This document shows positions 4,347-48,414 of a DNA stretch of 61,628 bases, piece by piece (the first letter of the stretch is position 1; each line of letters opens with the position of its first letter). Under the pieces are notes generated by a model. That model saw nothing but the letters and a program-made list of their open reading frames with translations, was not told the DNA's origin and ran no database searches. Made by a program: the position numbers and the translations under genes. The DNA is from an uncultured Deferribacteraceae bacterium (GTDB lineage: Bacteria; Chrysiogenota; Deferribacteres; CAMZNJ01), in contig CAMZNJ010000012.1 in the NCBI GenBank assembly GCA_947313825.1, forward strand, positions 1-61,628. Reading direction: 5' to 3'.

Positions 4347-7337
4347 CTAGTTGGTGTACCAATTCTGCACAGCCGAACCGTCGCAAGGTGATAAGGTATC
4401 GATGTATGGGGCACGTCCATGGTTGAAGGAGTTTGTCGACTGGAAATACTTCACACCGTTGCACCCAACAACGTCTTTTTTGAGGAAGAACACATTGTAG
4501 TGCATAATTGAAGATACGTCGTAGTTAGGTGAGCCCACTGTTCGTTGAATATCTTTGTACGTAAACAGAGGTGTTTGTGTTTGCACTTTCCCCACAATGC
4601 GTACTTTAATTTCGGCACCACCGGCAAAGTTGTAGAGTGGTATTTTGCCGAAGTTTGTTGTATCGCTAGCGTCTTGCGAGGATACTGTGATGTATTCGTC
4701 CCTGTCGTAACGTTGGTGTTCGTGCCATGCTCCCAGCACGTGTCCAAGTTCGTGTAGAGCCGTTGCATTTACAACCGAGTCGGGGTATATTCCATGGTAG
4801 TTTGCCACTGTGTTTTGTGTGTCTAGTGTTAGGGTATTGATGTGGTTTGGGTTGGTTCCTGTGCCTATGTTTGCAAGTCCGAAACCGCCGGCGTTCCCTG
4901 TTCTGTAGTCCACCACAAAGCCGCTTGCCGTGGGGTTTGGAGTGTTGGTTACGTTAACAAACTGCACTTTGCCACCTGTGGCATTTGTCCATTCGCCCAT
5001 TGCCCTTATCAGTGCTGTTTTGTGTTCGGGGAGGATATTGCTGTCCCATCGGTAGCGTATAATACCTTTTGGCCATAGGTTCGTGCGTTCTTTGTCGTAA
5101 AATACCTTTGAGGTAATGAGCCCGTCGCCATAAATTGCGTTCCCAGTGGTTGTAAGCACTATGCCGTTCTCTTTGGCAACAGTTTTCATCTCGCTGAATA
5201 TTTTTGTAAGATCTTCGCCACGATTTTCAGCAATAATTAGTTTGAGTTTGATCGTATTCTCGATAGTGCCGTCGTTGTTGATGAGAATATCCCTGTCGAA
5301 GGTAACCCTGTCCCCCGTCAGGCTAATACTGGCAACACTTCGCAAGTCGTCGTCGCTAGGTTTGAGGTTGCCCCTTAGGTTGTTGTATTTTAGGCGGAGT
5401 GCGTTCATTTCGTCGGTGTAGAACACAGTAATCGTATTGCCGTTGGCGTCGGTTTTTTCTCTGCTTAAGGATTGTGTTTGCCCCCCGAGCCTGTCGTTGA
5501 TAACGTCGTTGGTTGTTGGGTAGTTCCCTGTGCGAGCGAAGTAGCTGCTGAGGTATTCGTCAGATGTTTGGGAGTCGGTGGCATAGGATTGCACAATTGC
5601 TAGGGTTTCGTTGATTTCGTCAGCTTCTAGGCTCAATTCGTCCCTGTATGCCTTTGCCACGTTGGTTGTTAGCACCGACATACCGCCGCCGCCACCACCA
5701 CTATCACCACCACTATCACCACTATCACCACTATCACCACTATCACCACCGCTATCGCCACTACCACTGTACCAGCTGAAAACAGCGGAGCTATCGCAAG
5801 GGGAGAGTGTGTTAATGTATGGTGATCGTCCTTTGTTTGGTGAGTTTACTGACTTGAGATAGGTTACGCCGTTGCACCCCACAACGTCTTTTTTGAGTAG
5901 GAAGCCGTTGTAGTGCATGATGGATGATATGTCGTAGTTTGGCGATCCTATGGTATTTTTGCCATTGTCGGGTGTAAACAGGATGGTGCTTAGTTCCACA
6001 TCTCTGACAACGCGTGCTTTCCTCTCTGCCCCCATTGCGTAGTTGTAGTACGACACCCTACCGTAATTTACGATATCAGCTCTGTTTTCATCGGTAACGA
6101 TAATATATTTGTCTCTGTCGTATCGTTGGTGTTCGTGCCATGCACCTATCACATGACCTATTTCGTGCAGTGCTGTTGCTTCTACTACAGATTCGTCGTA
6201 TTTCCCTTTGTAGTTTGCTTTTGTGTTTCGATAATCGAGCACTAGTTTTGTTGGTTCGGTGAGGTCGTTGTATGTGCCGATATTTGCCCATCCGAAACCG
6301 TTTGCTTCCCCGGTTTCGTAGTCCACCACAGCACCACCGGCAAAGGGGTTTTCCAGATTGGTTACGTCTAGAAATTGGATACTGTTCCTCCCTGCTCCAG
6401 CTTCCCATTCGTTCATTGCTTTGATTAGTGCTGCTTTGTGTTCGGGGATGACGCTGTCGTCCCATCGGTAGCGGATAATTCCGTCTTTCCATAGGTTTGT
6501 GCGTCTTTTGGAGTAGAATGCTTTTGCAACTTGATACCCTTCTTCTGAGGCATCGTCGTTGTTGAGGAGTGTGTCGCCGTGATCGTGGTCGTGGTCATCG
6601 TCGTTGTAATAGTTGTATGCTGTTCCAAGTTGAACACCCCTGTTTTCGGCAACGGTTTTTAGTTCTTCGAATACTTCGGTGATATTTTCGTTACGACTTT
6701 CGGCAATGATGAGTAGTAGGTTGATTGTGTTGGCTATGTCGCCGTCGTTTTTGATGAGTATGTCCCTGTCGAAAATAACGTTTTCGCCGTTTACGTTAAT
6801 TTCGGGCACACTCATTAGTTCGTCAGTTGTAGGTCTTAATGCCTTAGCGTGTCCGTTGTATTTTGTTGCGAGGGTGCGTATTTCGTCTCTGTATGAGAGT
6901 GTTACGGTGTTGCCTTCGTCGTCGATGTAGTCTCTGATTAGGTTCGCGGCGTTGCTTCCGAGTCGATCGCCCACAATGTCGCCGATAGTTGGTGTATCTC
7001 CGCCCCTTCTGTTTGTGAAGTCAGCAATATACTCTTCGGTGGTGAGCCCATCGGTGGCATACTCTTGGATGATTTCTAGTGTTGAGTTCAGTTCGTTTGC
7101 GTCTAAGTTGAGAGATATTGCGTAAGCTTTGGCTACGTCGCTTTCTAGTGTTTCGGGAACGATTGTGCTTCCGTTGCCATCGTCGGCAATGTAGAAAACC
7201 GGTTTGTCGTCGGTGGTATTTTCGGCAACATTCGTTGTTAATCCGCACCCGGCAACAGCCATAGCAATGATGAATAGCGAGGATACCCCCACGTACATCT
7301 TTATAGCCCGTCTTTTGGTAGTGAAGTATGACGACAT
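4347..7337 (-). CDS. Tandem-duplicated (two-headed) astacin-family M12A zinc metalloprotease, predicted lipoprotein
   Basis: Two copies of the extended astacin zinc signature HExxHxxGxxHExxRxDRD (HEIGHVIGAWHEHQRYDRD and HELGHVLGAWHEHQRYDRD), each followed by the Met-turn SIMHY. The N-terminus has a basic n-region and lipobox AVAGC. The halves are joined by a (GDS)n/poly-G linker. AAGGAG lies 7 nt upstream of the ATG at 7337; the maximal ORF starts at a GTG at 7343. Confidence 0.85.
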   Translation of the reverse strand: MSSYFTTKRRAIKMYVGVSSLFIIAMAVAGCGLTTNVAENTTDDKPVFYIADDGNGSTIVPETLESDVAKAYAISLNLDANELNSTLEIIQEYATDGLTTEEYIADFTNRRGGDTPTIGDIVGDRLGSNAANLIRDYIDDEGNTVTLSYRDEIRTLATKYNGHAKALRPTTDELMSVPEINVNGENVIFDRDILIKNDGDIANTINLLLIIAESRNENITEVFEELKTVAENRGVQLGTAYNYYNDDDHDHDHGDTLLNNDDASEEGYQVAKAFYSKRRTNLWKDGIIRYRWDDSVIPEHKAALIKAMNEWEAGAGRNSIQFLDVTNLENPFAGGAVVDYETGEANGFGWANIGTYNDLTEPTKLVLDYRNTKANYKGKYDESVVEATALHEIGHVIGAWHEHQRYDRDKYIIVTDENRADIVNYGRVSYYNYAMGAERKARVVRDVELSTILFTPDNGKNTIGSPNYDISSIMHYNGFLLKKDVVGCNGVTYLKSVNSPNKGRSPYINTLSPCDSSAVFSWYSGSGDSGGDSGDSGDSGDSGGDSGGGGGGMSVLTTNVAKAYRDELSLEADEINETLAIVQSYATDSQTSDEYLSSYFARTGNYPTTNDVINDRLGGQTQSLSREKTDANGNTITVFYTDEMNALRLKYNNLRGNLKPSDDDLRSVASISLTGDRVTFDRDILINNDGTIENTIKLKLIIAENRGEDLTKIFSEMKTVAKENGIVLTTTGNAIYGDGLITSKVFYDKERTNLWPKGIIRYRWDSNILPEHKTALIRAMGEWTNATGGKVQFVNVTNTPNPTASGFVVDYRTGNAGGFGLANIGTGTNPNHINTLTLDTQNTVANYHGIYPDSVVNATALHELGHVLGAWHEHQRYDRDEYITVSSQDASDTTNFGKIPLYNFAGGAEIKVRIVGKVQTQTPLFTYKDIQRTVGSPNYDVSSIMHYNVFFLKKDVVGCNGVKYFQSTNSFNHGRAPYIDTLSPCDGSAVQNWYTN
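5685..5768. repeat. In-frame 9-nt tandem repeat (ACTATCACC on + strand) encoding the (GDS)n/poly-G linker between the two astacin modules
   Basis: Read directly from the sequence. The translated linker is SGSGDSGGDSGDSGDSGDSGGDSGGGGGG. Confidence 0.85.
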
Positions 7338-7517
7338 AAGCACTCTCCTTAAAGCCCCTAGAGCATTGCTTTATTCTACTATTTTAACCCATTTAAAGTA
7401 AAGAAAAATTAGTCCACTTGTATTTTGTGTCTTTTGTTGTTAGAATGTGAATTAGGTGCAAACAAAATAATACACGTAATTTACGACTCTGCTAATTACG
7501 TTTAGGTTCTATTTTTT

Positions 7518-8183
7518 ATGATACGCTTTCAAGATGTCTCCCTATCTTTTATAAAAGGGGAAAACATTCTAACAGACATTACGTTTCAGGCACAACGTGG
7601 CTCGTTTACGTATATTTCTGGTCGATCTGGTGCAGGCAAAACCACACTTTTACGCCTAATTTATGCCGACCTCAAGCCTAGTGGCGGGATTGTCAATATT
7701 GCTGGCAACGATATTACTGGTATGTCCCCACGCCTTGTTCCCTTTCTTCGTCGCCAAATCGGTATCGTATTCCAAGACTTCAAGCTTATTGAAGATAGCA
7801 CTGTTTACGAAAATGTCAAACTCCCACTGGATATATTCCGCCTCTCACGCCCTGTCATGGACGAAAAAATAGACGCTCTCCTCCATCGCCTTGGCATCAT
7901 CAACATTAAATTTGCCACTGTTCGCACCCTTTCTGGTGGTGAGAAACAACGTGTTGCCATTGCACGAGCCCTGATTAACGAGCCGTTCATTATTATCGCA
8001 GACGAGCCCACCGGCAACGTTGACGTGGAGAACGCTTACGCCATCACCGAGCTTTTACACAATGTGGCGAAAAACGGCACCACAGTTCTCATGGCAACCC
8101 ACGATCTACTCTTGAAGAAAATGTTCCCCGCACGCGAAATCTCCCTTGATCGGGGCAAACTGGTTTTGGATACAAAAATATGA
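7518..8183 (+). CDS. ftsE: Cell division ATP-binding protein FtsE
   Basis: 221-aa ABC ATPase with Walker [10 protein letters not shown], signature [15 protein letters not shown] and Walker [12 protein letters not shown]. Stop overlaps the start of an FtsX-type permease (ATGA). Confidence 0.88.
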
Positions 8184-9061
8184 CCAAGCTACTGCTACCA
8201 CTACAAAAAGGACTCAAAGTATTTTTCGGCAACCCCATGCTCACGTTTTTCTCCATCACGGTGCTAACGTCGGTCATACTAGTGTCGCAAATTTTCCTTG
8301 TCCTTGGCTTCAGCATCAACAACTACTTTCAAGGCTTAACCCTCATCTCTGAAGTTCGCCTGTACCTCGAGGACATCCCTGACGACAAAGCACAATCCCT
8401 TAGCAACAAAATCCTAGAGAACCCCAACGTAACCCATGTTCGTTACCTCAGCAAAGACCAAGTTTACCGTGCGTCTGTGTCCCTCAGTGGCGACGGTGTT
8501 TCCGACAAAGATGCCGCCCAATACTTCCCCGCCATGCTACTCATCGGCACACAGGTCAGCAATGGCGACACCTCTACCTTAGAGAGCATCATGGCAGAGT
8601 ACTCCCAGTCCGACGGTGTAATTTACGCCAGCTACGGCAAAGAGATAGTTTCAAAGCTCAAAATTTTATACTACTACATCTCTGCAGGTGTTCTCCTCCT
8701 CGGTGCCCTGCTATTCCTCGTCCTCACCTTCATCACCTACGTTGTCATCAAACTAACCCTGTACCGCTTAGCCAAAGAGATAGAAGTTTACAGCATCATC
8801 GGTGCCACCCCCCTCTTCATTAGCGTTGCCTACATCATGGACGTTACCATCAAGCTTGTTGTATCATTTGTTGCCGCCTACCTAATACTTCTCACCTTGG
8901 CATACTACACCCTCGCCGTCCTCCTCAACGTTGATTTCGCCTCGTACTTAGTTTACCCCCCCTTGTCGTACTTCCTCTACCTTTTCGTTGCCGTACTACT
9001 ATCGGGCATACTATCATCTTATGCTAGCGTGCGTAGCTTCATACGCTCCACACAGTCGTAA
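8180..9061 (+). CDS. ftsX: Cell division permease FtsX
   Basis: 293 aa with one N-terminal TM, a periplasmic domain and a C-terminal 3-TM FtsX bundle. Translationally coupled to ftsE and followed by an EnvC-like gene. Confidence 0.82.
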   Translation: MTKLLLPLQKGLKVFFGNPMLTFFSITVLTSVILVSQIFLVLGFSINNYFQGLTLISEVRLYLEDIPDDKAQSLSNKILENPNVTHVRYLSKDQVYRASVSLSGDGVSDKDAAQYFPAMLLIGTQVSNGDTSTLESIMAEYSQSDGVIYASYGKEIVSKLKILYYYISAGVLLLGALLFLVLTFITYVVIKLTLYRLAKEIEVYSIIGATPLFISVAYIMDVTIKLVVSFVAAYLILLTLAYYTLAVLLNVDFASYLVYPPLSYFLYLFVAVLLSGILSSYASVRSFIRSTQS

Positions 9062-9076
9062 GAGGAGGACGATAGC

Positions 9077-10300
9077 ATGGGCACAACAAACCAACACTCA
9101 AAACTACCACAACTCATCGCAACAACCCTACTCGCCATGGCAATACTCACCACCTTCACAGTAACCCCCCTCCCACTAATCACAACCGCCCACGGTGCCA
9201 TTAGCGATCCCAACAGCGACGCCTCCATTCGTAGCCTCAAAAACCTTGAAAAACAGATAGCCGACGAACAGAAAGAGCTACAACGACTCGCTAGCAAAAA
9301 AACATCCACAGCAAAACAGGTTGCCGCACTGGAAAGCCGTGAACGCAACCTCAAAACCCTCCTTCGCAACGTCAACAACGACATCAACTGGCTCAACCAC
9401 CTCATCAACAAAAGCAACAAAAACCTCCAACAACTCGACGCCGAACTATCCCAAGCAAAACAAGACCTACTATTCGCCAACGCTGTACTCGTGGAAACTG
9501 TGATAAAATCACACGAATCCCCAATATTCCTTGGCGACGCAATCGATAGCTACCTCATGAGCTCCGAAACCAAATCCATTGTCGCCAACAACATCGATGC
9601 CAAAATCTCAATCATCAACGACAAACAAAACAAGGTCAAACAGGTTTTGCAAGAGAACGACAAACGAGTGGCTAGTATCAAACAGAAGAAATCCCGCTAC
9701 CAAAAAATTACCAAAGATATTGTTGCCTCACAACAGGAATACGCAAAACAGATATCACTGCTGTCCAAAGATGAACAAAGCAAAAAAGAGTACATTAATC
9801 AACTAAAACAAAGCCAAGAAATACTACTCGAAACCATTCGCCGAGGCACAAACAAAGAACTCATCACCAAATACGCCAACCCCTTTGCCGAACTATCCGA
9901 CTCCAACTTCATCGCCAACAAAGGTCGCTACCCCAAGCCTGTTAGTGGCAGTATCACCGAGCCCTTTGGCGAACGATACATCGAACAACTCAAAACAAGC
10001 ATAAAAAATAACGGCATAAAAATCGGCGTAACCAAAGACAGCAACGTTATTGTTATCGCTCGGGGGATAGTGGTTTACACCGACTATGTTCGCGGTATGG
10101 GCAACGTTGTCATTGTCCAACACTCCCAAAACTACTACACCGTTTACGCACACCTGGACAGGATTACAGTTGAGGCTGGAGATATTCTTGAAAAGAGTTC
10201 TGTTTTAGGGTATATTTTTGGTAGCGGTGATTCCACGTTTTTGCATTTTGAGTTACGACGTGGACAACGAGCACTAAACCCTGTCAGCTGGATAAAATAA
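9077..10300 (+). CDS. envC: Murein hydrolase activator EnvC-like protein (coiled coil plus degenerate LytM/M23 domain)
   Basis: Signal sequence, a long Q/K/L-rich coiled coil and a C-terminal LytM fold (GMGNVVIVQHSQNYYTVYAHL...FLHFELR). The catalytic HxxxD is replaced (NNGIKIG) and the first His of HxH is lost (FLH), as in non-catalytic EnvC. GGAGG RBS. Confidence 0.8.
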   Translation: MGTTNQHSKLPQLIATTLLAMAILTTFTVTPLPLITTAHGAISDPNSDASIRSLKNLEKQIADEQKELQRLASKKTSTAKQVAALESRERNLKTLLRNVNNDINWLNHLINKSNKNLQQLDAELSQAKQDLLFANAVLVETVIKSHESPIFLGDAIDSYLMSSETKSIVANNIDAKISIINDKQNKVKQVLQENDKRVASIKQKKSRYQKITKDIVASQQEYAKQISLLSKDEQSKKEYINQLKQSQEILLETIRRGTNKELITKYANPFAELSDSNFIANKGRYPKPVSGSITEPFGERYIEQLKTSIKNNGIKIGVTKDSNVIVIARGIVVYTDYVRGMGNVVIVQHSQNYYTVYAHLDRITVEAGDILEKSSVLGYIFGSGDSTFLHFELRRGQRALNPVSWIK

Positions 10301-10410
10301 TTTTTCACCATTATTTTTTTCAAAACAAGTTGCACAGCGTCATGTTTTAGTATAAATATGTTTCATACAACAGCGAAATACTTCACAAACGAACAGCCCT
10401 AGGGGGACTC

Positions 10411-11706
10411 ATGGTCAAACGATTATTTTTATTCTCAGTAAGCTTACTACTCATTGCCGTCAGCATTGTTACAATACAAAGCCAAGTATCATTCGCCAAA
10501 GATACCACTGGCAAGAATACTAACGACAACTTTGAATACATTGAGGAGTTTTCCAACGTCATTAGCCTACTCGAGGCATACTACGTTGACAATGTTAGCG
10601 AGTCCACCCTGCTCCAAGGTGCCATCAACGGTCTGTTCCTCTCCCTCGACCCCCACTCAGGCTACATGAATGCCTCCTCCTACAAGGAGTTCAAGGATGC
10701 CAGCACCGGTCGTTACTTCGGTGTCGGTCTTGTTATCTCCCGCGGAGAATCGTCCATCGTTGTTGTCTCCCCCATCAAAGGCTCTCCAGCGTTTAAAGCC
10801 GGTCTCAAAGCTGGCGACATCATCATCAAAATCGACAACACACTCACCAGTGGCGTTACAACCACTGAAGCAGCCAAAATGATACGCGGACCTATCAAAA
10901 CTAAGGTGCGTCTCACCATTGTACGCGACGGGGAGAAAGAGCCGTTAGTGTTTACACTTGTACGCGACGAAATTGTTCAAGAGATTGTTGAAAGCGAAAA
11001 ATACGGCAAAAACGTGGGGTACATCTCACTCTCAACGTTTAACGATCAGCAAGCATACGAAAAACTTGCCAAAGAGTTTGCACGTATGGATAAAAGTGGT
11101 GTTGATGGGTTCATTCTAGATCTACGCGGTAACGGTGGCGGATTCCTCGACGAAGCCATCAAAATCTCTAGCATATTCTTGCCCGCAAACAGCCTTGTTG
11201 TGTACACCGAAGGGCGTAACGGACAACGATCAAACTACACAACACGCCGTGTAAACTACTCTACCCAAAAACCAACCGTTGTCCTTGTGGATGAAGGGAG
11301 TGCTAGTGCTAGCGAAATTGTTGCAGGGGCACTGCAAGACCACAACCGTGCGTTGATTGTCGGGGGGGTAACCTTTGGGAAGGCAAGTGTGCAGACCCTG
11401 TTCCCACTAGACACAGGCTCAGCTGTACGACTCACCATCGCTCGATACTACACACCCGCCGGCAGATCCATTCAAGGCGTGGGTATCGCACCCGATGTGC
11501 CTGTTGCCAAGGGTACAATTCAGTACGAAAAACCTGCATTTATCCTCCGTGAGTCCGACCTATCCAACACTCTGGACTCCAACAGCACAGCACTGGATTC
11601 CGCCACAATCACTGACGCAAAAGTTGATTCCGACCTACAACTCGAAACAGCCATCAATATACTCAAAGGGATGATTATCTCCCAACAACGGATGGCAAAC
11701 AGGTAG
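10411..11706 (+). CDS. ctpA: Carboxyl-terminal processing protease (S41 family, PDZ domain)
   Basis: Signal peptide, a PDZ segment (GVGLVISRGESSIVVVSPIKGSPAFKAGLKAGDIIIKID) and an S41 catalytic region (LDLRGNGGG...VLVDEGSASASEIVAGALQD...GKASVQT). Confidence 0.88.
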   Translation: MVKRLFLFSVSLLLIAVSIVTIQSQVSFAKDTTGKNTNDNFEYIEEFSNVISLLEAYYVDNVSESTLLQGAINGLFLSLDPHSGYMNASSYKEFKDASTGRYFGVGLVISRGESSIVVVSPIKGSPAFKAGLKAGDIIIKIDNTLTSGVTTTEAAKMIRGPIKTKVRLTIVRDGEKEPLVFTLVRDEIVQEIVESEKYGKNVGYISLSTFNDQQAYEKLAKEFARMDKSGVDGFILDLRGNGGGFLDEAIKISSIFLPANSLVVYTEGRNGQRSNYTTRRVNYSTQKPTVVLVDEGSASASEIVAGALQDHNRALIVGGVTFGKASVQTLFPLDTGSAVRLTIARYYTPAGRSIQGVGIAPDVPVAKGTIQYEKPAFILRESDLSNTLDSNSTALDSATITDAKVDSDLQLETAINILKGMIISQQRMANR

Positions 11707-11767
11707 CAACCACACAGGACAACACACTAAACACTAACGATACCATGTCGACTAATACTAGATTGAG

Positions 11768-13306
11768 GTGCTGGTTATGCGTAGCAACAACAAAAATAAC
11801 TCAACTGAGGGCAAAAACACTACTTCACGCCCTGACCCCTCAGAGAACCTGTTCAACGCTGACGACCGCGAATACAGCACCTCAAATACCTCAACACACA
11901 CTACTAATGAAAAAGCGAAAGGACAATCGCAAACCCTAACTCGCATCATCTACACCACACTATTCGCACTATCCATCGTCGTAATCGTCCTGCTGTACCT
12001 ACAATACAAAACCTCCAAAGAGCTCGCCTCACTATCGCAAAACAGCAGCCTCATCTCACAAGTCCAACTCCTCGACTCCCCACCTGTTACCTCCAACATT
12101 ATCTTTCAGGCGGTCAAAGGTGTGCTCATGGATCTCGGCGGCAACAACAACGACATTGTCATCTCCAAACTAGACGCCAGCCAAACACCACCCGTTGTAT
12201 GGGTCGACATTACCCTCCGTGGGGGGAGCACCAACGGCGACACGGAAGAGGCGGAACTACGCCATACATTTATCACCAACGTGGAAACACTCCTACTCCC
12301 CACAGGCGTTACCATCGAAGACAAAGGGTTCCAGATAGACGTCCGTGGTCCCGAGTACACCATCATCCTGTTGCTCAAAAATAACACAGGCGGAATCGTG
12401 CCCCATGACAACACAGGAGACATTGGCGAATACAGCAACATCACCGACGATATCTTCACCGACGCCACACCCACAAACACCACCACAAACATCACGGCGA
12501 ACGAAGAACTCAGCACAGCCTACCAAGAGTTTGCTCAATCCCTCACGCCAGCTCCCCCTGCAGGTAAATCCCTCGTATTTGTCATCGACGACTGTGGCTA
12601 CAGCGACAACCTCACCACCCGCGTAACCAACATCAACCGGAACCTCACCGTCGCTGTTATCCCCTTTTTGCGTCATAGCGTTTCCTCTGCCGAGATTGCA
12701 CGCAACAATGGCAACCCCGTATTCCTACACCTCCCCATGGAGCCCTACCATAACGCCCCCATCATGAACGACCTACAAAACAGACTCCTAGTCAACATGA
12801 CGGCGGACGAATGGACACACCTTGCAACCATCTCTGCAGAAAATATCGGTGGCATCGACGGCATCGGTGGCATCGACGGCTTCAACAACCACGAAGGCTC
12901 ATACTTCACCGAAGGGGTCGATCGAATGAGCACCGTTTTGCAAGCAATGGCTCCTTTTACTAATCTGTTTCTGGACTCACGAACATCATCCAAATCCGTC
13001 GGCTACAGCACCTGCAAGGGTATCCAAGGCTACAACTGTGCGTCAAACAACTGGTATCTCGACAACAACAACGATTACGCCTACATCTTTAACCAAACCT
13101 TAGGGCTCACCAAATCCAAACGCAAGGATACGGTTGTTATTGCCCACTGTCGCCCCAAAACCGTGGACGCCCTCGAGCTTGCCATCCCCCTCCTTGTGGA
13201 GAATGGTTACAGCATGGGAACGGTTCCACTAGTGTCGAAGCCTGCAACCACGCTCCCTGACAGTGGCATGAGCAACAGCGATAACAACAACGATAACAGC
13301 AACTAG
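11768..13306 (+). CDS. Divergent polysaccharide deacetylase family protein (YibQ-like) with long N-terminal TM/low-complexity region
   Basis: The C-terminal half matches the YibQ family pattern (LVFVIDDCGYS, LTVAVIPF, VFLHLPMEP, FNNHEGSYFTE, LFLDSRTS). It sits downstream of envC, as in the E. coli envC-yibQ arrangement. Contains an 18-nt in-frame duplication (IGGIDG x2) at 12845-12880. Confidence 0.75.
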   Translation: MLVMRSNNKNNSTEGKNTTSRPDPSENLFNADDREYSTSNTSTHTTNEKAKGQSQTLTRIIYTTLFALSIVVIVLLYLQYKTSKELASLSQNSSLISQVQLLDSPPVTSNIIFQAVKGVLMDLGGNNNDIVISKLDASQTPPVVWVDITLRGGSTNGDTEEAELRHTFITNVETLLLPTGVTIEDKGFQIDVRGPEYTIILLLKNNTGGIVPHDNTGDIGEYSNITDDIFTDATPTNTTTNITANEELSTAYQEFAQSLTPAPPAGKSLVFVIDDCGYSDNLTTRVTNINRNLTVAVIPFLRHSVSSAEIARNNGNPVFLHLPMEPYHNAPIMNDLQNRLLVNMTADEWTHLATISAENIGGIDGIGGIDGFNNHEGSYFTEGVDRMSTVLQAMAPFTNLFLDSRTSSKSVGYSTCKGIQGYNCASNNWYLDNNNDYAYIFNQTLGLTKSKRKDTVVIAHCRPKTVDALELAIPLLVENGYSMGTVPLVSKPATTLPDSGMSNSDNNNDNSN

Positions 13307-33735: not shown

Positions 33736-36174
33736 TTAAGATGTTATCAAGCTCAAAGCTGTTTGAGGTAGTGCTTTGGCTTGTGCGAGCATGGCCGTTG
33801 CGGCCTGTTGTAGTACTTGGTTACGCGTAAACAGAGTTGTTTCAGCCGCAATATCCGCATCCATTACTCGCGAATTCGCCGCCGTAAGGTTCTCACGCAT
33901 AATATCCAAGTTGCTCACAGTGTAGGTAATACGACTCATTTGGGCACCGATTGTTGCCCTTGTTGAGTTCACCCGCGTTAGGGCATTGTCAAACAGACTA
34001 ATCGCCTGCTCAGCAACATGTTGATCGTAAACATACGCCCCAGATAGTTGCAACGACTCGATGGTCATCTCAGGGATGGACACACTCATGGTTTGTCCAG
34101 CATTTGCCCCAATATGGAGATCAGTTCTGTTGTCCACAAGGTGGAGGTAGAAGTTATCCTTTGAGCCAGTGCTTGTGTAGTCGATGAGTCCGCTATTTGG
34201 GTTGTAGGAGGCTATCAGTCCAGCAGTTGAGTCCACTTTGAGCATTACACCTTGGATATTTGGGGGGAAGAGGAATCCCGATGTTGTGGAATCTGAGGAT
34301 TGGTGCTTGCCCGTGTGTGCGTCGTAAACATCGATGAACAAACGCGACTCCGCTTCGTTTATCACCGAGCCGAAACTAAACGCATCCACAATATCGCTGT
34401 TGCCTACAACAGATATTCGGGAATTCGCACCCAAACCTGCTGCCTGCATAATAAACGTACCCGGAATCTTAGCAATATCACCAACCTTATTGAGATCGGT
34501 AACAAACTTAACCAAGTTTTTGTTAATCTCATCGGCAGCAGCTTGCGAACCTGCTGTTTCCCTAGTGGCACCAAGTCCCATCTTTTGGAGAAGGTTTGTC
34601 AACAGGTCATCCACCTCAAAGAGGGTATCGTTCCCCTCGAGGAATACCTCCTCTTTGGAGCCATTCCCGCCGTAAAGTGTTAACGTTTGCACAATATCCA
34701 TGATATTGAGCCCATTGGCATTGCGAAAACTTGCCAGCTGATTGAGGGTTGTGCTCTCTGTGGCAACCTCGCCACCGCCGTTAATAAAGTAGGTGGACGT
34801 ACCGGGGATAGTACCAACAGCTGTGGTTATCTCGTTGAAGTACATTTCAGCAGCTGTGTAGCGAACTGTTCCTGTGGAGGGATCCATAATTGCGTAGTGC
34901 AGTTGCACCCGTGCCAAATCATCTTTCCCATCGTTGTTGTCGAACATGCCCAGCTCTTGAGGCAGATACTCAACTTGAGGTGTGGACGCCGTGCCTGCCG
35001 GTGTTCCGTTAATGGCAAACCCTGTTTCACTACCGTTGTTGGCAATGTTAATTACACCACCACCTGTAAGCAGTCTGTCAGCATTAGCTGCAATCTCTGC
35101 CTGAACAGTGTTCAAAAACTTTGTACCAGGCTCAATCAGTGTCGGAACAGTTGTGCTCACACTACTTATGCTAAAGTTAATCCTAAACGACGAAACACCT
35201 GTTATTGTTACCTCAAACGACGACTTACCAACAATACTAGCCGAGGCATCAAGTGTGCCCGATTTAACCTCGCCTGTTTTTGAGTCAGTAAACTTGTAGC
35301 GAATAGTTTCCACTGCCGAAGCACCGCCAGAAGTCTTATTGCCAGACATGGTAACAACCTCGTACTCGAAATAACCACTCCTGTCCACAGAGCCAGTAAC
35401 TGCAGTAACTGTAGCAGAAGTCGCAACATCGATGCTTCGTCCAGCGAGGTACATGGAAACGTTATCCGTACTTGCAGCAACAGCACCAGTAGGGTTGCTA
35501 ACATTGATATCGTAGGTTCCGCCATTGGTGGAAAAATCCTGATCGCGAAGGGTACGAACGTACGCCAACGAGCCGTTTTGTGTTGCTAAGCCAGCGGCAA
35601 ACTGACCCTCAGCAAGTTGCATAATGTGGGATTTATACACAGCCGAAGACCCCGGCTCAGTATTGACGGCAATACGATAGTTGCCCTCCTTTACCTCACC
35701 AGTAATTAACGCCTCAACCCTGCTACTACTACTTGACCACAGAGCTGTTGCATCGCCGTTCAGTAATTTCTTGGTGTTGAATTCCACGGAAACCGTAACA
35801 CGATTCATCTCGTCCTTGAGCTGATCAACCTCTTTCTGAAGCTCTGCCCTATCTGATGTGGTGTAGGTTCCGTTGGCTGCCTGAATAGACAACTCACGCA
35901 TGCGGAGAATCATATCTCCAAGTGCCTGCAAACCGCCCTCTGCTACTTGCAACATGGACAAACCATCTTGTGCGTTCCTGTTGGCAACACTCAAGCCGTT
36001 TATCTGACTCTCCAACCGCTTGGATACCGCCAAGCCAGAAGCGTCATCAAGAGCACTGTTAATACGTAGGCCGGATGATAAACGCTGAATCGACTGATCC
36101 AACATGGACTGCGATCTGGTCAGACTGTTTTGTGCCGTAATGGCAAGGGGGTTACTATAAATACGTAAAGCCAT
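33736..36174 (-). CDS. fliC: Flagellin, giant type (812 aa) with about 540-aa central hypervariable region
   Basis: Canonical flagellin N-terminal D0/D1 (RLSSGLRINSALDDASGLAVSKRL...NAQDGLSMLQVAEGGL) and C-terminal D1/D0 (ATIGAQMSRI...NSRVMDADIAAETTLFTRNQVLQQAATAMLAQAKALPQTALSL). GGAGG RBS. Confidence 0.92.
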   Translation of the reverse strand: MALRIYSNPLAITAQNSLTRSQSMLDQSIQRLSSGLRINSALDDASGLAVSKRLESQINGLSVANRNAQDGLSMLQVAEGGLQALGDMILRMRELSIQAANGTYTTSDRAELQKEVDQLKDEMNRVTVSVEFNTKKLLNGDATALWSSSSSRVEALITGEVKEGNYRIAVNTEPGSSAVYKSHIMQLAEGQFAAGLATQNGSLAYVRTLRDQDFSTNGGTYDINVSNPTGAVAASTDNVSMYLAGRSIDVATSATVTAVTGSVDRSGYFEYEVVTMSGNKTSGGASAVETIRYKFTDSKTGEVKSGTLDASASIVGKSSFEVTITGVSSFRINFSISSVSTTVPTLIEPGTKFLNTVQAEIAANADRLLTGGGVINIANNGSETGFAINGTPAGTASTPQVEYLPQELGMFDNNDGKDDLARVQLHYAIMDPSTGTVRYTAAEMYFNEITTAVGTIPGTSTYFINGGGEVATESTTLNQLASFRNANGLNIMDIVQTLTLYGGNGSKEEVFLEGNDTLFEVDDLLTNLLQKMGLGATRETAGSQAAADEINKNLVKFVTDLNKVGDIAKIPGTFIMQAAGLGANSRISVVGNSDIVDAFSFGSVINEAESRLFIDVYDAHTGKHQSSDSTTSGFLFPPNIQGVMLKVDSTAGLIASYNPNSGLIDYTSTGSKDNFYLHLVDNRTDLHIGANAGQTMSVSIPEMTIESLQLSGAYVYDQHVAEQAISLFDNALTRVNSTRATIGAQMSRITYTVSNLDIMRENLTAANSRVMDADIAAETTLFTRNQVLQQAATAMLAQAKALPQTALSLITS

Positions 36175-43675: not shown

Positions 43676-45079
43676 TTAGAAGTATACATTCAGAGCCGTT
43701 GCAAGGGATGTTGCATTCGTGGGGTACACGTCTTTGAAGCTTCCCCTGTTGGTTTCTGCTGTTACGCCAATGTTGAAGTTGTTGTTGATGAGGTATTCGG
43801 CGTGGGCCGAAAATTGGTTGGACTCATCGGTTGTAACGTAGGAGTAGGACGATTTGAATCGGAATCGTGAGTACAGTTCGTATTCAACGCCGGCTGTGAT
43901 AACCTTGGCGTCAATATCCACATCTTCATCGTCGCTTGTGGCTTTGAGGTCTTCCAAAACATCTTCCATGGCTTTGTTGGCGGAGTCTTGAAGGTAGTAT
44001 TCAGCCGTGAGTCTTAGGTTTCCGCTGGAGTACTCCAACCCTGTGGATAGCTGGTAAAAGAGGGGATCGCCTTTTGGTTTGCCCTCTGGAGCTTTAAAAC
44101 TCACCTCCCGATTGAGGAAGTTTGCTTCGGAATCTGAGAGCTCGTTTGCACCGCTGTTGAAGTAGGATATTTGGTGCATTACTCCTTCAGTATAAAAACC
44201 GAAAGAGTAGAAGTGTTTTTCTAGTGAGCCACCACCGTAGTTGCTTCGTGTAATTTTGCACAGGTAGGATACGTCTGTGCCTACTAGTCCGCAACGATTG
44301 ATGGTGCCACCTTGAAGTTGAATATCCACTGCTTCGGCGTTAATGTTGGAGCGTACTGTGATAGTTTTGCTACTTTCGTTGGTGGATAGTCCGTAAATAA
44401 GGTTTACTTCAGAGAGCCCCACAGGGATATCCATACGCATGACATCTATTCCGTATCGGTATTCTGAGTTAAGGTAGAGGTTGTAGACGTCTAGGGGTGA
44501 GTACACATTTGAGGTACCGAGCCCAACGGGTTGGCGTCCTACTTTGAGGTTAAAGTATGGTGATGGGATATTTAGGTAAAGCCAGTCCATGTCGAAATAG
44601 TAGATACCAGCTCCATTGGGGAGGTATCCGGCTTTGGTGAAGTCTGTAATACGGTAGGTGGTGTCGTTACGGTTAATGTTCGCAGGGGCATCGTACGCAG
44701 GGAAGTACCTGCTTGTTAGCAGAAAGGAGTCGTAAATAAATACTGCGTCAAACTCATCCCCATCTTTGTTGTAGGTATCAACCTCTCTTATTTGCAGAGC
44801 GATAGCACCCAGCGTTGGCTGAGCAACAAAGCGTATGTAGTCGCCACCGATATCGAAAAGGAGCCTGTTGCCTATTTCTAGCTTGTTTGCACGTGTTTCA
44901 AAGTAGTCGGAAAAGTCGATACCTATGCTTGTGGTGGACAGTTCGATCATTGTGTCTGTGCCAACACTAGCGTAGTATCCATCTCCATACTCGAGTGTTA
45001 TTCCATATGCCGGCAACGAAGCGAAAGCTATAGTTGCACTAATTAGTAGTAATGTTAAACTCTTTTTCTTTGCCATCAT
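43676..45079 (-). CDS. Large outer-membrane beta-barrel protein (DUF1302/alginate-export-like pattern), hypothetical
   Basis: Signal peptide MMAKKKSLTLLLISATIAFASLPAYG, a KVGRQPVGLGTS segment reminiscent of porin-like barrels and the C-terminal aromatic ...ALNVYF. Last gene of the ABC cluster. The maximal ORF start is at 45094. Confidence 0.6.
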   Translation of the reverse strand: MMAKKKSLTLLLISATIAFASLPAYGITLEYGDGYYASVGTDTMIELSTTSIGIDFSDYFETRANKLEIGNRLLFDIGGDYIRFVAQPTLGAIALQIREVDTYNKDGDEFDAVFIYDSFLLTSRYFPAYDAPANINRNDTTYRITDFTKAGYLPNGAGIYYFDMDWLYLNIPSPYFNLKVGRQPVGLGTSNVYSPLDVYNLYLNSEYRYGIDVMRMDIPVGLSEVNLIYGLSTNESSKTITVRSNINAEAVDIQLQGGTINRCGLVGTDVSYLCKITRSNYGGGSLEKHFYSFGFYTEGVMHQISYFNSGANELSDSEANFLNREVSFKAPEGKPKGDPLFYQLSTGLEYSSGNLRLTAEYYLQDSANKAMEDVLEDLKATSDDEDVDIDAKVITAGVEYELYSRFRFKSSYSYVTTDESNQFSAHAEYLINNNFNIGVTAETNRGSFKDVYPTNATSLATALNVYF

Positions 45080-45749
45080 AGTGAATTTGCCCATCCCTTA
45101 ACCATATTAATCTATCGCAATAACTCATTACGTCCTTGTCGTGTGTAGAAATTAGAAACGTTATTCCACTTGTTTTATTTAGCTGACTGACGAGTTCTAG
45201 AAAGCTTTCCGAGGTTTTTGAGTCCAAGTTTGCAGTGGGCTCATCCGCAAGGATAATCGCGGGGCTTGAGGCTAGTGCCCGTGCAATGGCAACGCGTTGT
45301 TGTTGCCCGCCAGAGAGTTGACGCGGATACCTACTATGCAGGTCGGCAATACCAACAGAGTCCAACGCCTCCATCGCCATGGCACGGCGTTCACTACGGG
45401 GCACCCCTTGGATGGTCAGAACGTACTCAGCATTCTCCACTGCAGTCAAAACAGGGATAAGGTTGTAGCTCTGAAAAATAAATCCCATTTTGTGGCGACG
45501 CAACGAGCTTTGCTGATGGCTTGTGTACCCTGTTGTGAGGTCGCCGTCCACGTAAATCACTCCGCTAGTGGGGGAGTCAAGTGCACCGATGAGGTTGAGG
45601 AGAGTAGATTTACCGCTACCGGAAGGACCACCCATGGCAGTCAGCTCCCCAGCTGTTATCTCCAGAGATACATCATTGACAGCAAGAACCTCAACATCAC
45701 CCTGTTTGTAAATTTTACTCACACTTTCAAGCTTTATAATAGACTTCAT
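45039..45749 (-). CDS. ABC transporter ATP-binding protein (MacB/LolD-like)
   Basis: Walker A GPSGSGKSTLLN, signature [15 protein letters not shown] and Walker B ILADEPTANLD. GGTGGAG lies 5 nt upstream of the ATG at 45749. Confidence 0.88.
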   Translation of the reverse strand: MKSIIKLESVSKIYKQGDVEVLAVNDVSLEITAGELTAMGGPSGSGKSTLLNLIGALDSPTSGVIYVDGDLTTGYTSHQQSSLRRHKMGFIFQSYNLIPVLTAVENAEYVLTIQGVPRSERRAMAMEALDSVGIADLHSRYPRQLSGGQQQRVAIARALASSPAIILADEPTANLDSKTSESFLELVSQLNKTSGITFLISTHDKDVMSYCDRLIWLRDGQIHYDGKEKEFNITTN

Positions 45750-45812: not shown

Positions 45813-47195
45813 TCACGACCTATCTGTTATATCAACATCTGTACATTTCTTCACGCCAACAAGGTTTAAAATAGCCGATGCAGCCCAAATATAGATAAAT
45901 GTTCCCCAGAAATTCGACATGCTCAGCCTAGCGTAAACTCGCAAATCGGAAAACTGGAAGAACAGCTCTGATATTTCGGATAAGTTAAGTATCTTGGCAA
46001 AATCAACACCGATATTTGAAAGGGGAATAAGGAGTAAAAACGTTAGCAAGCTGCCTATTACTGCACCCAAAAAGCCGTAAAGAACACCCTCGATTAAGAC
46101 CTGCAACCGTAAGTAGGTTGGCGATGATCCCAAAGAGAGGATTGTGGAAAATTCTCGCCTACGCTCAAAAACAGACAAAAGAAATATATTTAAAATACCG
46201 AGGATTATCAAAAATATGAGCATGTACGTAATAACCTTGACCAAAGCCCTGTCAAACGCAATAAACGAAACAATCTCAGGCTTAATCTCATCCCAACGAA
46301 ACACGGTGCGGGTATCTGTATTAAAAGAGCTCATGGCAGAATAAATACGCGGAAGGTTCTCAACGGCATCTATCTCAAGACCGATACGAGTGTACTCATT
46401 CGGACCCATTCCCAAAAGGGAGCGAAGGGTTTCGCGGTTGGTCAAAACAACACCGTCATCGTATTCGCTACCACTTGTGTCCAGAATACCGTATACGCGG
46501 AGAGATCGCATGCTCAACTCGCCACTCTTATCGCTAGCACCAACAACAACCCTACTCCCAACGCGAAGGTTAAGCTTCTCAGCCAAATCAACACCGATAA
46601 CAATACGATTAGTTGTGGTTTCGTCGATAAACTTGCCGTCAACAATACGACTCTTCAGGGGTATAACCTGATCGAACACATCAAAATCTGTGGCACGAAT
46701 GGAGACGCTCTTGGTGTTGTACGGAGACTGCACCACACCCGTTGCCAAAACATAAGGCTTAACATAAGTAACACCCTTAACATTGGCAATCTCCTCCAAC
46801 TCACTTGCAGTAACATTGATCGTATTGCCATTGGACGGATACTCGTAGTAAGTAGGGCTCTGAACAACAACAAAACCCTCTGTTGCCTTTATGTTTTCGG
46901 AGATGAGCTTGTGGAAAAAACCCTCACCAAGGCTAAGCCAAACCATGGTAAACGCCATGCCAGCTGCAAGTGTCAGTATAATCGCGAGGGAACGAAGCCT
47001 GTTACGCACCATGGTACGTATTGCCAAACGGAAGATCATGGCTAAGTTGCTGCCAACACCACCGTGTTGCTCTGTGCCCTTGGGTTTGTGGGGCACTGAC
47101 GCTGATGACGACGAATAGGAATCGCTATGTTTACGACTACCATTGCCATTATGCTTATCGGTGCGTCCTTCCAAGTTACTCTCGGGTCTAGCCAT
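45813..47195 (-). CDS. FtsX/MacB-type ABC transporter permease (second of pair)
   Basis: TM1 (RLRSLAIILTLAAGMAF), a large periplasmic domain and a C-terminal 3-TM FtsX bundle. The ATG at 47195 overlaps the stop of the upstream permease gene (ATGGCTAG). An S/H/K-rich cytoplasmic N-tail precedes TM1. Confidence 0.82.
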   Translation of the reverse strand: MARPESNLEGRTDKHNGNGSRKHSDSYSSSSASVPHKPKGTEQHGGVGSNLAMIFRLAIRTMVRNRLRSLAIILTLAAGMAFTMVWLSLGEGFFHKLISENIKATEGFVVVQSPTYYEYPSNGNTINVTASELEEIANVKGVTYVKPYVLATGVVQSPYNTKSVSIRATDFDVFDQVIPLKSRIVDGKFIDETTTNRIVIGVDLAEKLNLRVGSRVVVGASDKSGELSMRSLRVYGILDTSGSEYDDGVVLTNRETLRSLLGMGPNEYTRIGLEIDAVENLPRIYSAMSSFNTDTRTVFRWDEIKPEIVSFIAFDRALVKVITYMLIFLIILGILNIFLLSVFERRREFSTILSLGSSPTYLRLQVLIEGVLYGFLGAVIGSLLTFLLLIPLSNIGVDFAKILNLSEISELFFQFSDLRVYARLSMSNFWGTFIYIWAASAILNLVGVKKCTDVDITDRS

Positions 47196-48414
47196 GCTGC
47201 AACCCCCTAACAGTATCAATACGTAAAACCTTCCAGGCAGGGTAAAGGGACGTCAGCAGAACTATGCCCATAATCGACAGGGGCACAGTGATGTAAAGCG
47301 ACGGCACAACCGCACCGTACAACAGCGGATCGAAATAAACACCCCCCAAAGAAACAACGGGCAACACGTTGGAAAAATCTATGCCAACAATTTTGATGTA
47401 AGCGTTGATAGGTATCGCAATTGCTATCCCCACAACAATACCCACAGACGACACAAACAACGCCTCAAGGGACGTCATTATAAACAAGTAGTGGGGGCGT
47501 GTGCCCAGTGCACTCATGATGGCGTACTCGCGAATACGCTCGTTTACCGAGATGATCATTAAGTTGAGGATGCCGATGGCAACAGCAAGACCAAAAATTA
47601 CAACATATAAATAAACAAAACCGTCAAGAAGCTGAAACATCTGATTAAGGGACGGGTTCGACTCGTACCAACGTAAAATCTCATCCACGTTACCAAGCTC
47701 ATTATTGAGCGCCATGAGCTTGTCGTAAAACGGCTCCAAAGCTACTGAAGGCATATTGAACACAATTTCGTGGGGGAGGTCGTTCGTGCGAAATAGATCC
47801 TGAAACTCAGTACGGGGCATGAAAATAGCAACGCGATCAGATTCTTCATTCAAAGGACCGAAAATACCACGAATATGGTAGATCTCATTGGCAAAAGAAC
47901 CATCGTAAGCAGAGCCGAGGAATACTAGCTCGCTGCCAAGGCTCAGGTTGAGGTACTGTGCTAGAACACGACCAACAACGATACCCTTGGGATCATCCTC
48001 CGAGATAAATTCACCTTGAAGAACGCTGTTAGGGATGACAGTTGTGTTGGCTTCAGCAGCGGGGTTCACCGCAACGATGGCAACACCTGTGGAAAGGGTG
48101 TCGGATGAACCAAGACCAGAGGCATAACTACGCACAGAGTAGGAGACACCCTCAGACTCAGCAAGGGATATGTAGGACTCATTGGCCAAAATAGGCTCGT
48201 AAATACTGTTGGTATCGCTAAATAAGTGTGAGCGTACGGCAATCTTGCCGATAACATCGGTGAGGTCATCCTCGGTTTTGAAGATGAAGCCACTAATCAA
48301 GGATTGGAATACTATAATCAGAGCCGTCGCAATAGCAACAGCCACAACCATAATACTACTCCGAGTAGGGTTACGCAAAACATTTCGTGCTGCAATAAAT
48401 GGTACTTGTCTCAT
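47188..48414 (-). CDS. FtsX/MacB-type ABC transporter permease (first of pair)
   Basis: FIAARNVLRNPTRSSIMVVAVAIA N-terminus, a large periplasmic domain and a C-terminal FtsX bundle. ATG at 48414; the maximal ORF starts at a TTG at 48441. Confidence 0.82.
   Translation of the reverse strand: MRQVPFIAARNVLRNPTRSSIMVVAVAIATALIIVFQSLISGFIFKTEDDLTDVIGKIAVRSHLFSDTNSIYEPILANESYISLAESEGVSYSVRSYASGLGSSDTLSTGVAIVAVNPAAEANTTVIPNSVLQGEFISEDDPKGIVVGRVLAQYLNLSLGSELVFLGSAYDGSFANEIYHIRGIFGPLNEESDRVAIFMPRTEFQDLFRTNDLPHEIVFNMPSVALEPFYDKLMALNNELGNVDEILRWYESNPSLNQMFQLLDGFVYLYVVIFGLAVAIGILNLMIISVNERIREYAIMSALGTRPHYLFIMTSLEALFVSSVGIVVGIAIAIPINAYIKIVGIDFSNVLPVVSLGGVYFDPLLYGAVVPSLYITVPLSIMGIVLLTSLYPAWKVLRIDTVRGLQHG

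Follow-up and report, generated by a model that had tools for sequence, protein, structure and literature searches.

Astacins are a heavily studied family of animal proteases, and astacin itself was first discovered in the gut of a crustacean. A conserved disulfide pattern is typical of the animal enzymes rather than strictly defining them, and the Tyr of the SxMHY Met-turn serves as the fifth zinc ligand. The arrangement of a folded domain in front of a related protease is known from profragilysin-3, which consists of a signal peptide, a folded pro-domain of ~190 amino acids (aa) and a metzincin catalytic domain. Here, we describe a gene of an uncultured Deferribacteraceae bacterium (contig CAMZNJ010000012.1 of assembly GCA_947313825.1, whose 61,628 nucleotides are referred to as ‘the window’) that encodes a predicted lipoprotein with two astacin modules in tandem, each composed of an N-terminal domain (‘N-domain’), a linker, and an astacin catalytic domain (‘head’).

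Bacterial astacins are rare, with only flavastacin and the myroilysins having been characterised (PMC9848320), in agreement with the original prediction for this locus, made from the DNA sequence alone, which had called bacterial examples comparatively few. Astacins are zymogens in which a pro-segment blocks the zinc, pro-domains range in size from 34 to 486 aa, and maturation yields a new N-terminus that is buried and engages in a salt bridge to the family-specific Glu following the third His of the zinc motif (PMC9848320). The pro-segment of myroilysin is short and operates with a cysteine switch, and the latency of profragilysin-3 is conferred by an aspartate switch (PMC9848320).

Two astacin modules in one gene

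The two halves of the encoded protein can be locally aligned over 473 columns with 247 identities (52%; BLOSUM62 score 1246), such that residues 54–526 match residues 546–998 and the sequence VAKAY recurs at residues 70 and 562. As originally predicted, a single lipoprotein open reading frame (ORF) thus comprises two complete modules in which about half of the positions are identical. When compared with the Pfam family Astacin (PF01400; gathering cut-off 22.5 bits), each head passes on its own, with 58.8 bits (E 7.5e-16) for catalytic domain 1 and 64.9 bits (E 1e-17) for catalytic domain 2, and the whole protein reaches an E-value of 5.3e-31. Both heads exhibit the full HExxHxxGxxHExxRxDRD signature (HEIGHVIGAWHEHQRYDRD, residues 393–411, and HELGHVLGAWHEHQRYDRD, residues 864–882), including the family-specific Glu following the third His, as well as a SIMHY Met-turn (residues 474 and 945). 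Judged from these motifs, both heads are astacin (M12A) domains with every catalytic residue intact, as had been anticipated when both active sites were thought to look functional.

A catalytic-domain profile constructed from five sequences matches BMP-1 (2e-18), astacin (1.7e-12) and myroilysin (1.2e-5), and the whole protein, when used as query, matches animal astacins at just ~1e-6. The alignment of the profile with BMP-1 comprises (i) the N-terminal WxGxIxY, (ii) the zinc motif, and (iii) the stretch from the Met-turn through the C-terminal SxxD...Y. Of the three-part module initially proposed, the N-domain and the catalytic domain stand. The Cys-containing ‘tail’ (CNGV...LSPCD) pairs with the terminal ...LSxxDxxxxxxLY of BMP-1 in the alignment and hence forms the C-terminal segment of the catalytic domain. 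A Foldseek search with the module model yielded BMP-1 as the best match (5.8e-5), along with myroilysin (1.7e-4) and astacin, at target-normalised template modelling (TM) scores of ~0.5 and with the catalytic part of the model exhibiting a low predicted local distance difference test (pLDDT) score. Just five Cys are present in the protein (33, 490, 516, 961 and 987). Downstream of the Met-turn, each head carries two of these (490/516 and 961/987), and none is found in the heads of the single-headed relatives described below; each pair probably forms a lineage-specific disulfide. The disulfide pattern of animal astacins is present in neither head.

The minus-strand ORF spans 4347..7343, with the stop codon at 4347–4349 and 998 codons when counted from a GTG at 7343. 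Since an AAGGAGA Shine-Dalgarno sequence (7344–7350) is located 6 nt before an ATG at 7337, and orthologues begin with MSSYF, which corresponds to this ATG, the latter is likely the start codon, giving a gene at 4347–7337. Residue numbers used here count from the GTG at 7343, and 2 has to be subtracted to obtain ATG numbering. The signal sequence comprises an n-region with KRR, a hydrophobic core, and VAGC with Cys33, in accordance with the lipobox consensus used for signal peptidase II substrates, [LVI][ASTVI][GAS]C. The lipobox is kept in the relatives, being LAGC or VAGC in P0001, P0002, P0010 and P0011, LAGC in P0003, IGGC in P0004, and VSSC in P0006. The coordinates of all features are provided in Table 1.

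Table 1. Features of the tandem astacin gene (window positions; residues counted from the GTG at 7343; dN/dS, ratio of nonsynonymous to synonymous substitution rates).
Feature	Residues	Position	Strand	Basis or remark
Complete gene, coding for a pre-pro-lipoprotein of 996 aa with both astacin modules		4347..7337	-	ORF list, Shine-Dalgarno sequence, orthologue starts
Signal peptide (MSSYFTTKRRAIKMYVGVSSLFIIAMAVAG)		7248..7337	-	Read from sequence
Lipobox VAGC		7245–7256	-	
Lipidated Cys33	33	7245–7247	-	Lipidation predicted from sequence
Tether, lipid anchor to first N-domain	34–65	7149..7244	-	Outside repeat alignment or weakly aligned; dN/dS 0.33
N-domain copy 1, folded alpha/beta	66–235	6639..7148	-	46% identical to copy 2; dN/dS 0.185
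Linker 1, D/H-rich, length variable; ends at Lys274, putative activation site K|AFYSK	236–274	6522..6638	-	
Astacin catalytic domain 1	275–526	5766..6521	-	PF01400 58.8 bits, motifs, dN/dS 0.086
Sites of catalytic domain 1		zinc motif 6111–6167; SIMHY 5910–5924; Cys490 5874–5876; Cys516 5796–5798	-	
Inter-module (SGD)n/Gly low-complexity linker	527–557	5673..5765	-	Tandem Repeats Finder (TRF) arrays 5693–5767
N-domain copy 2	558–725	5169..5672	-	AlphaFold2 (AF2) model; dN/dS 0.248
Linker 2; YGDGLI with acidic Asp740; Lys746, putative activation site K|VFYDK	726–746	5106..5168	-	
Astacin catalytic domain 2	747–998	4350..5105	-	PF01400 64.9 bits, motifs, Foldseek, dN/dS 0.169
Sites of catalytic domain 2		zinc motif 4698–4754; SIMHY 4497–4511; Cys961 4461–4463; Cys987 4383–4385	-	

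Age and conservation of the tandem architecture

Four further two-headed variants of 977–986 aa were identified in independent assemblies, giving five together with the window gene. They differ in length solely within two low-complexity linkers, and all five retain the zinc motif, the Met-turn and the Cys pair of either head. P0001, a 98% match, is located in GCA_947313785.1, an assembly whose accession number points to the same project, and the only match in GTDB contigs representing one genome per species (83% identity) belongs to the uncultured Deferribacteraceae bacterium isolate M_Rainbow_MAG_00001, which was named Candidatus Rimicarispirillum atlantis in a published genome analysis. The window organism is thus probably a sister lineage within Candidatus Rimicarispirillum, a midgut symbiont residing between the microvilli of deep-sea vent Rimicaris shrimp.

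Because orthologous copies are 83–86% identical and paralogous copies only 46–48%, the duplication is older than the split of the two-headed lineages. At the DNA level, the two modules of the window gene share 62% identity (49% when third codon positions are counted alone), and they nowhere match exactly over more than 20 nt; together with the recurrence of the architecture in independent assemblies, this indicates that the duplication is real. Comparison of the window gene with its 83% orthologue (Nei-Gojobori) yields dN/dS ratios of 0.185 for N-domain 1, 0.086 for catalytic domain 1, 0.248 for N-domain 2 and 0.169 for catalytic domain 2, and these values indicate that both heads and both N-domains are held by purifying selection.

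The inter-module linker is coded by a 9/21-nt tandem repeat (5693–5767), and the D/H-rich stretch of linker 1 (DDDHDHDH) by a 6-nt repeat at 6578–6604. Since both are length-polymorphic across the five variants, slipped-strand variation of spacer length is suggested for both repeat-coded linkers. The plus strand furthermore contains a nearly identical pair of terminator-like hairpins at 4457–4473 and 5870–5886 (CGTTGCACCC[A/C]ACAACG then TCTTTTTTGA). As these are antisense to the conserved KKDVVGCNG coding segment of each catalytic domain, they were rejected as terminator signals and are a by-product of the duplication.

The N-domain

An AF2 model of N-domain copy 2 alone (pLDDT 81.5; predicted TM score 0.72) comprises three helices followed by an alpha/beta part, with helices at 10–36, 43–54, 60–68, 91–107, 113–117, 143–156 and 161–174 and strands at 76–80, 86–90, 122–125, 128–131 and 135–138 (model numbering). 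When module 2 was modelled as a whole from a seven-sequence alignment, the pLDDT of the N-domain was 85–92 over residues 10–120; with seven sequences the catalytic half remained of low confidence (pLDDT ~30–60), such that no docking of the N-domain can be read from the model. The folded part is trailed by a disordered linker of 20–40 aa, and the ~230 aa at first assigned to the N-domain hence have to be divided into a folded part of ~170 aa and this linker.

None of the seven available copies of the N-domain matches a Pfam or NCBIfam family, a search of its profile against the sequences of the Protein Data Bank (PDB) gave no match (best E 0.07), and Foldseek searches with the model gave none against either the PDB (best E 0.25, TM <0.2, with profragilysin not being among the results) or BFVD. 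When the N-domain profile was searched exhaustively with HMMER against 1.84 billion representative proteins, three proteins were returned: its own cluster, P0006 (E 2.4e-5), which is the sole credible match beyond that cluster, and P0007, a spurious match that was rejected as an unrelated repeat protein. The early impression of an unrecognised repeated domain is thus borne out, and structure prediction adds a confident fold without a Foldseek match in the PDB or BFVD. As modelled, the N-domain is a folded domain of ~170 aa that is specific to this astacin lipoprotein family.

Single-headed relatives

Three further, uncharacterised lipoproteins of 456–482 aa (P0003 and P0004, identified by word-indexed search, and P0006) are single-headed and exhibit the order lipobox, N-domain, linker, astacin domain, so that the survey of homologues comprises five two-headed variants and three single-headed forms. 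Alignment of the four N-domains of the window lineage with those of P0003, P0004 and P0006 by hhalign yields a probability of 94% and an E-value of 1.2e-7 over 158 columns, and sequence identities across distant relatives are 14–25% for the N-domain versus 24–32% for the catalytic domain. Because the single-headed lipoproteins carry a homologous N-domain, the ancestral unit consists of one N-domain and one astacin domain, and it is this entire unit that was duplicated in tandem in the lineage of the window gene.

The family is very sparsely sampled: word-indexed homologue searches gave two matches with the whole protein, three with a module profile and four with a broader profile. A scan of metagenome contigs identified 13 loci, all by their catalytic domain only; none of the 13 matches the N-domain, and none has two zinc motifs per ORF. 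Among the 19 astacin-like loci examined, two zinc motifs in one ORF occur in the symbiont genes only. On the 19-kb contig carrying P0006, the protease gene is followed, within 5001–9813 (L007), by five small ORFs without Pfam match and next by a gene for a caspase-like Peptidase_C14 protein, and two SNF-family transporter genes and NeuB are located upstream of the P0006 gene.

Linkers and a proposed mode of activation

Linker 2 is predicted to be disordered, with pLDDT values of 27–31 for model residues 181–200 (...TTGNAIYGDGLITSKVFYDKERT) and values below 35 for the linker segment in the model of module 2. Each of the five module types has a Lys or Arg 9–11 residues before an invariant Trp (11 residues for the Lys of linker 1), a position to be compared with residue 10, at which this Trp is found in TLL-1 and likewise in astacin. 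An acidic residue occurs ~6 residues upstream of the Lys/Arg in four of the five module types, and GD(T/G)L(L/I), the motif to which Asp740 belongs, does not vary among the four copies aligned from the window lineage and its orthologue. The FxGDI motif of animal-type aspartate-switch pro-segments is not present, with the nearest sequences being IGDIV (in a predicted helix and unconserved in relatives) and YGDGL and HGDTL in the linkers. The segments GDIVGDRLG and NDVINDRLG, which had been put forward as a possible aspartate switch, are located within the predicted helix 60–68, and the single-headed relatives do not share their Asp; they are for these reasons ranked below the acidic residue of the linker.

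Taken together, these features lead us to lean, with modest confidence, toward considering the gene product a lipid-anchored double pro-astacin, in which each N-domain and its linker serve as the pro-region of the following head. The protein would be exported by the Sec system, lipidated at Cys33 and, with a Gly at position +2, sorted to the outer membrane. Each N-domain would then act as the pro-domain of the next catalytic domain, conferring latency and perhaps assisting in folding, with the acidic residue in GD(T/G)L(L/I) being a candidate for blocking the zinc. Activation would consist of a cut after the conserved Lys/Arg 9–11 residues ahead of the invariant Trp, which would place the Trp at residue 9–11 of the mature enzyme and free the N-terminus for burial against the family-specific Glu. 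Since the linkers contain several Lys/Arg, the activator may be trypsin-like and could possibly be a host digestive enzyme, namely trypsin in the shrimp midgut. Cuts at both sites would leave the lipid and N-domain 1 on the membrane and release both a fragment made up of catalytic domain 1, linker and N-domain 2, and catalytic domain 2; since the heads would be released by cleavage, the anchor would hold the zymogen and not the active enzyme. A likely role would be the degradation of extracellular protein or the remodelling of the host surface in the ectoperitrophic space. It is tempting to go further and speculate that the N-domain constitutes a new class of folded astacin pro-domain, and that the double zymogen is activated by host midgut trypsin with the heads being released in turn, such that control over a protease of the symbiont at the surface of the microvilli would effectively rest with the host; as a whole, we regard this extended scenario as rather unlikely.

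Several points weigh against this reading. Rules for outer-membrane sorting were established in E. coli, and Deferribacterota may not follow them. No reliable model places the N-domain at the active-site cleft, the pLDDT of the catalytic part being ~30–60. No Asp or Cys is invariant across all seven aligned sequences of N-domain plus linker, so that no zinc-blocking residue can be singled out. The N-domains are conserved nearly as strongly as the catalytic domains, which is also consistent with a permanent functional domain, and the structurally characterised pro-segments of astacins are essentially unstructured peptides, unlike the folded N-domain (PMC9848320).

Alternatively, the N-domains might be permanent accessory domains, for example for substrate binding, spacing or oligomerisation, with the whole protein remaining anchored at the surface and presenting two active heads at different distances from the membrane. 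The confident fold (pLDDT 81.5), dN/dS ratios of 0.19–0.25, which imply purifying selection much like that acting on the catalytic domains, the unstructured nature of known astacin pro-segments (PMC9848320) and the failure of the alignments to reveal a conserved switch residue are all in keeping with such a role, and it is for an active enzyme that remains attached that a lipid anchor would be most readily understood. However, both heads contain the family-specific Glu that binds a free mature N-terminus (PMC9848320), a disordered linker containing Lys/Arg is located exactly at the position of the astacin maturation site, and among distant relatives the N-domain has changed more rapidly than the catalytic domain (14–25% versus 24–32% identity), as is usual for pro-domains. 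Permanent accessory domains are thus a possible but, in our view, doubtful explanation. It is considerably less probable that just one head works while the other is a degenerating or regulatory pseudo-enzyme. Tandem duplicates do often sub-functionalise, and head 2 and N-domain 2 evolve somewhat faster (0.169/0.248) than head 1 and N-domain 1 (0.086/0.185), but the zinc ligands, catalytic Glu, family Glu, Met and Tyr of the Met-turn and both Cys are intact in both heads of all five variants, and the dN/dS ratios of both heads are well under 1.

Astacin is a digestive enzyme of crustaceans and the bacterium inhabits the shrimp midgut, so that one might think of an astacin gene that was acquired horizontally from the crustacean host in recent times and whose product mimics a host enzyme. 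Bacterial astacins, mostly found in animal-associated bacteria, have indeed been argued to be xenologues from animal donors (PMC9848320), and the catalytic profile scores animal BMP-1 and astacin above bacterial myroilysin. Yet the guanine-cytosine (GC) content of the gene (0.475) matches that of the window (0.468), the gene is embedded among housekeeping genes with conserved synteny, its catalytic domain is very divergent from animal astacins (~1e-6 with the whole-protein query), the animal cysteine pattern is missing, and the unit of lipobox, N-domain and catalytic domain is also present in other metagenomic lipoproteins. Recent transfer from the host is hence not supported and appears very improbable, although no phylogeny was built; in view of the divergence, GC content, synteny and the bacterial unit bearing the N-domain, any transfer would be ancient. 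Finally, although metagenome assemblies are concerned and repeats can mislead assemblers, we consider the chance that the two-headed structure is an artefact of assembly or gene calling negligible and have rejected it: the modules are too dissimilar at the DNA level, the ORF is uninterrupted, and at least four further contigs from independent assemblies exhibit this architecture, with each module diverging in an orthologue-specific manner.

Genomic context and symbiosis

The neighbours of the protease gene include lolD/lolC-like genes, mdh, ftsEX, M23, S41 and tsaD. Divergent from it on the plus strand (7518–13306) are ftsE, ftsX, and the genes for an M23 (EnvC-like) peptidase, an S41 C-terminal processing protease and a divergent polysaccharide deacetylase. 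As ftsE, ftsX and the M23 and S41 peptidase genes also adjoin the protease gene in orthologous contigs, and the symbiont has been reported to form long non-septate filaments with many chromosomes, this synteny deserves attention. Two genes away from the protease gene, a LolD-like ABC ATPase (802–1608) and a LolC/E-like permease with MacB_PCD and FtsX domains (1562–2920) are encoded on the minus strand; the pair may represent lipoprotein-release machinery, and its nearness to a lipoprotein gene may be a coincidence. A second permease with MacB_PCD and FtsX domains is encoded at 45813–47219 (minus strand).

Elsewhere in the window, an unusually long flagellin of 812 aa (33736–36174, minus strand) is encoded, which exhibits Flagellin_N at 7–142, Flagellin_C at 727–810 and a central part of ~580 aa without Pfam match. 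No Pfam family is matched at E <= 1e-8 by two further ORFs, at 55477–58293 (plus strand, 938 aa) and 43676–45094 (minus strand, 472 aa), and the former is located in a stretch at ~52–60 kb in which the GC skew is strongly negative and the AT skew positive. Neither tRNA genes nor Rfam families (at the gathering threshold) were detected in the 61.6-kb window (1–61628).

Neither the genome paper on Ca. Rimicarispirillum atlantis nor that on the R. kairei Deferribacterota mentions ‘astacin’, ‘metalloprotease’ or ‘peptidase’, and the protease is therefore an overlooked candidate for the nutritional or host-interaction side of the shrimp symbiosis, in which the symbiont lives pressed to a crustacean gut epithelium. 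Should the N-domain turn out to be a pro-domain, it would constitute a third, structurally distinct latency device in astacins and a candidate for a step at which the host could control an enzyme of its symbiont.

Comparison with known systems

Crayfish astacin, BMP-1 and TLL-1 (MEROPS M12A, PF01400) share with the two heads the zinc motif, SIMHY, WxGxIxY, SxxD...Y and the family-specific Glu. Owing to insertions, the heads of the window protein are larger (~250 aa rather than ~200 aa), and in contrast to the animal enzymes they possess two Cys only, both after the Met-turn and hence outside the animal disulfide pattern. The window protein further differs from animal astacins by its bacterial lipoprotein signal and by having two heads per chain. 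Multiple astacin catalytic domains do occur in predicted animal proteins of Amphimedon (A0A1X7U9V1), Ancylostoma (A0A368GTC8) and Lucilia (A0A0L0BYD0) (PMC9848320), which share this property with the window protein but are eukaryotic, uncharacterised gene models and not lipoproteins. Multi-headed astacins are thus not entirely without precedent; a bacterial form is not mentioned in the 2023 review (PMC9848320).

Among bacterial enzymes, myroilysin from Myroides (PDB 5GWD and 5ZJK) is likewise an M12A zymogen with an N-terminal pro-segment and is found by Foldseek at 1.7e-4. It is one-headed, however, and the window protein has a folded N-terminal domain of ~170 aa, with no Cys in either N-domain or linker, and a catalytic profile that matches myroilysin (1.2e-5) more weakly than the animal enzymes. 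Legionella LegP (NCBIfam NF045530) and flavastacin are also astacin-like enzymes of animal-associated bacteria, but both lack this N-domain and the tandem layout, and LegP is a Dot/Icm effector according to its NCBIfam description and not a lipoprotein. NF045530 is the best NCBIfam match of the window protein, with 89.7 bits over the two heads versus a cut-off of 300, and the two are thus not equivalent in the sense of an equivalog.

The layout most similar to that of the window protein is found in profragilysin-3, the Bacteroides fragilis toxin (PDB 3P24), in which a folded pro-domain likewise precedes a metzincin domain in a protein of a gut bacterium. The catalytic domain is, however, of the adamalysin-like and not the astacin type, there is a single head, and the pro-domain is not matched by the model of the N-domain. 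The catalytic chemistry of the window protein is ordinary astacin chemistry, and nothing known is overturned. What is new is a bacterial tandem astacin lipoprotein belonging to a small subfamily in which a folded N-domain of no detectable relatives always precedes the catalytic domain. We consider this a genuine, if modest, addition to an enzyme family that is well known, for which function is deduced from comparison and whose N-domain and host context are of specialist interest.

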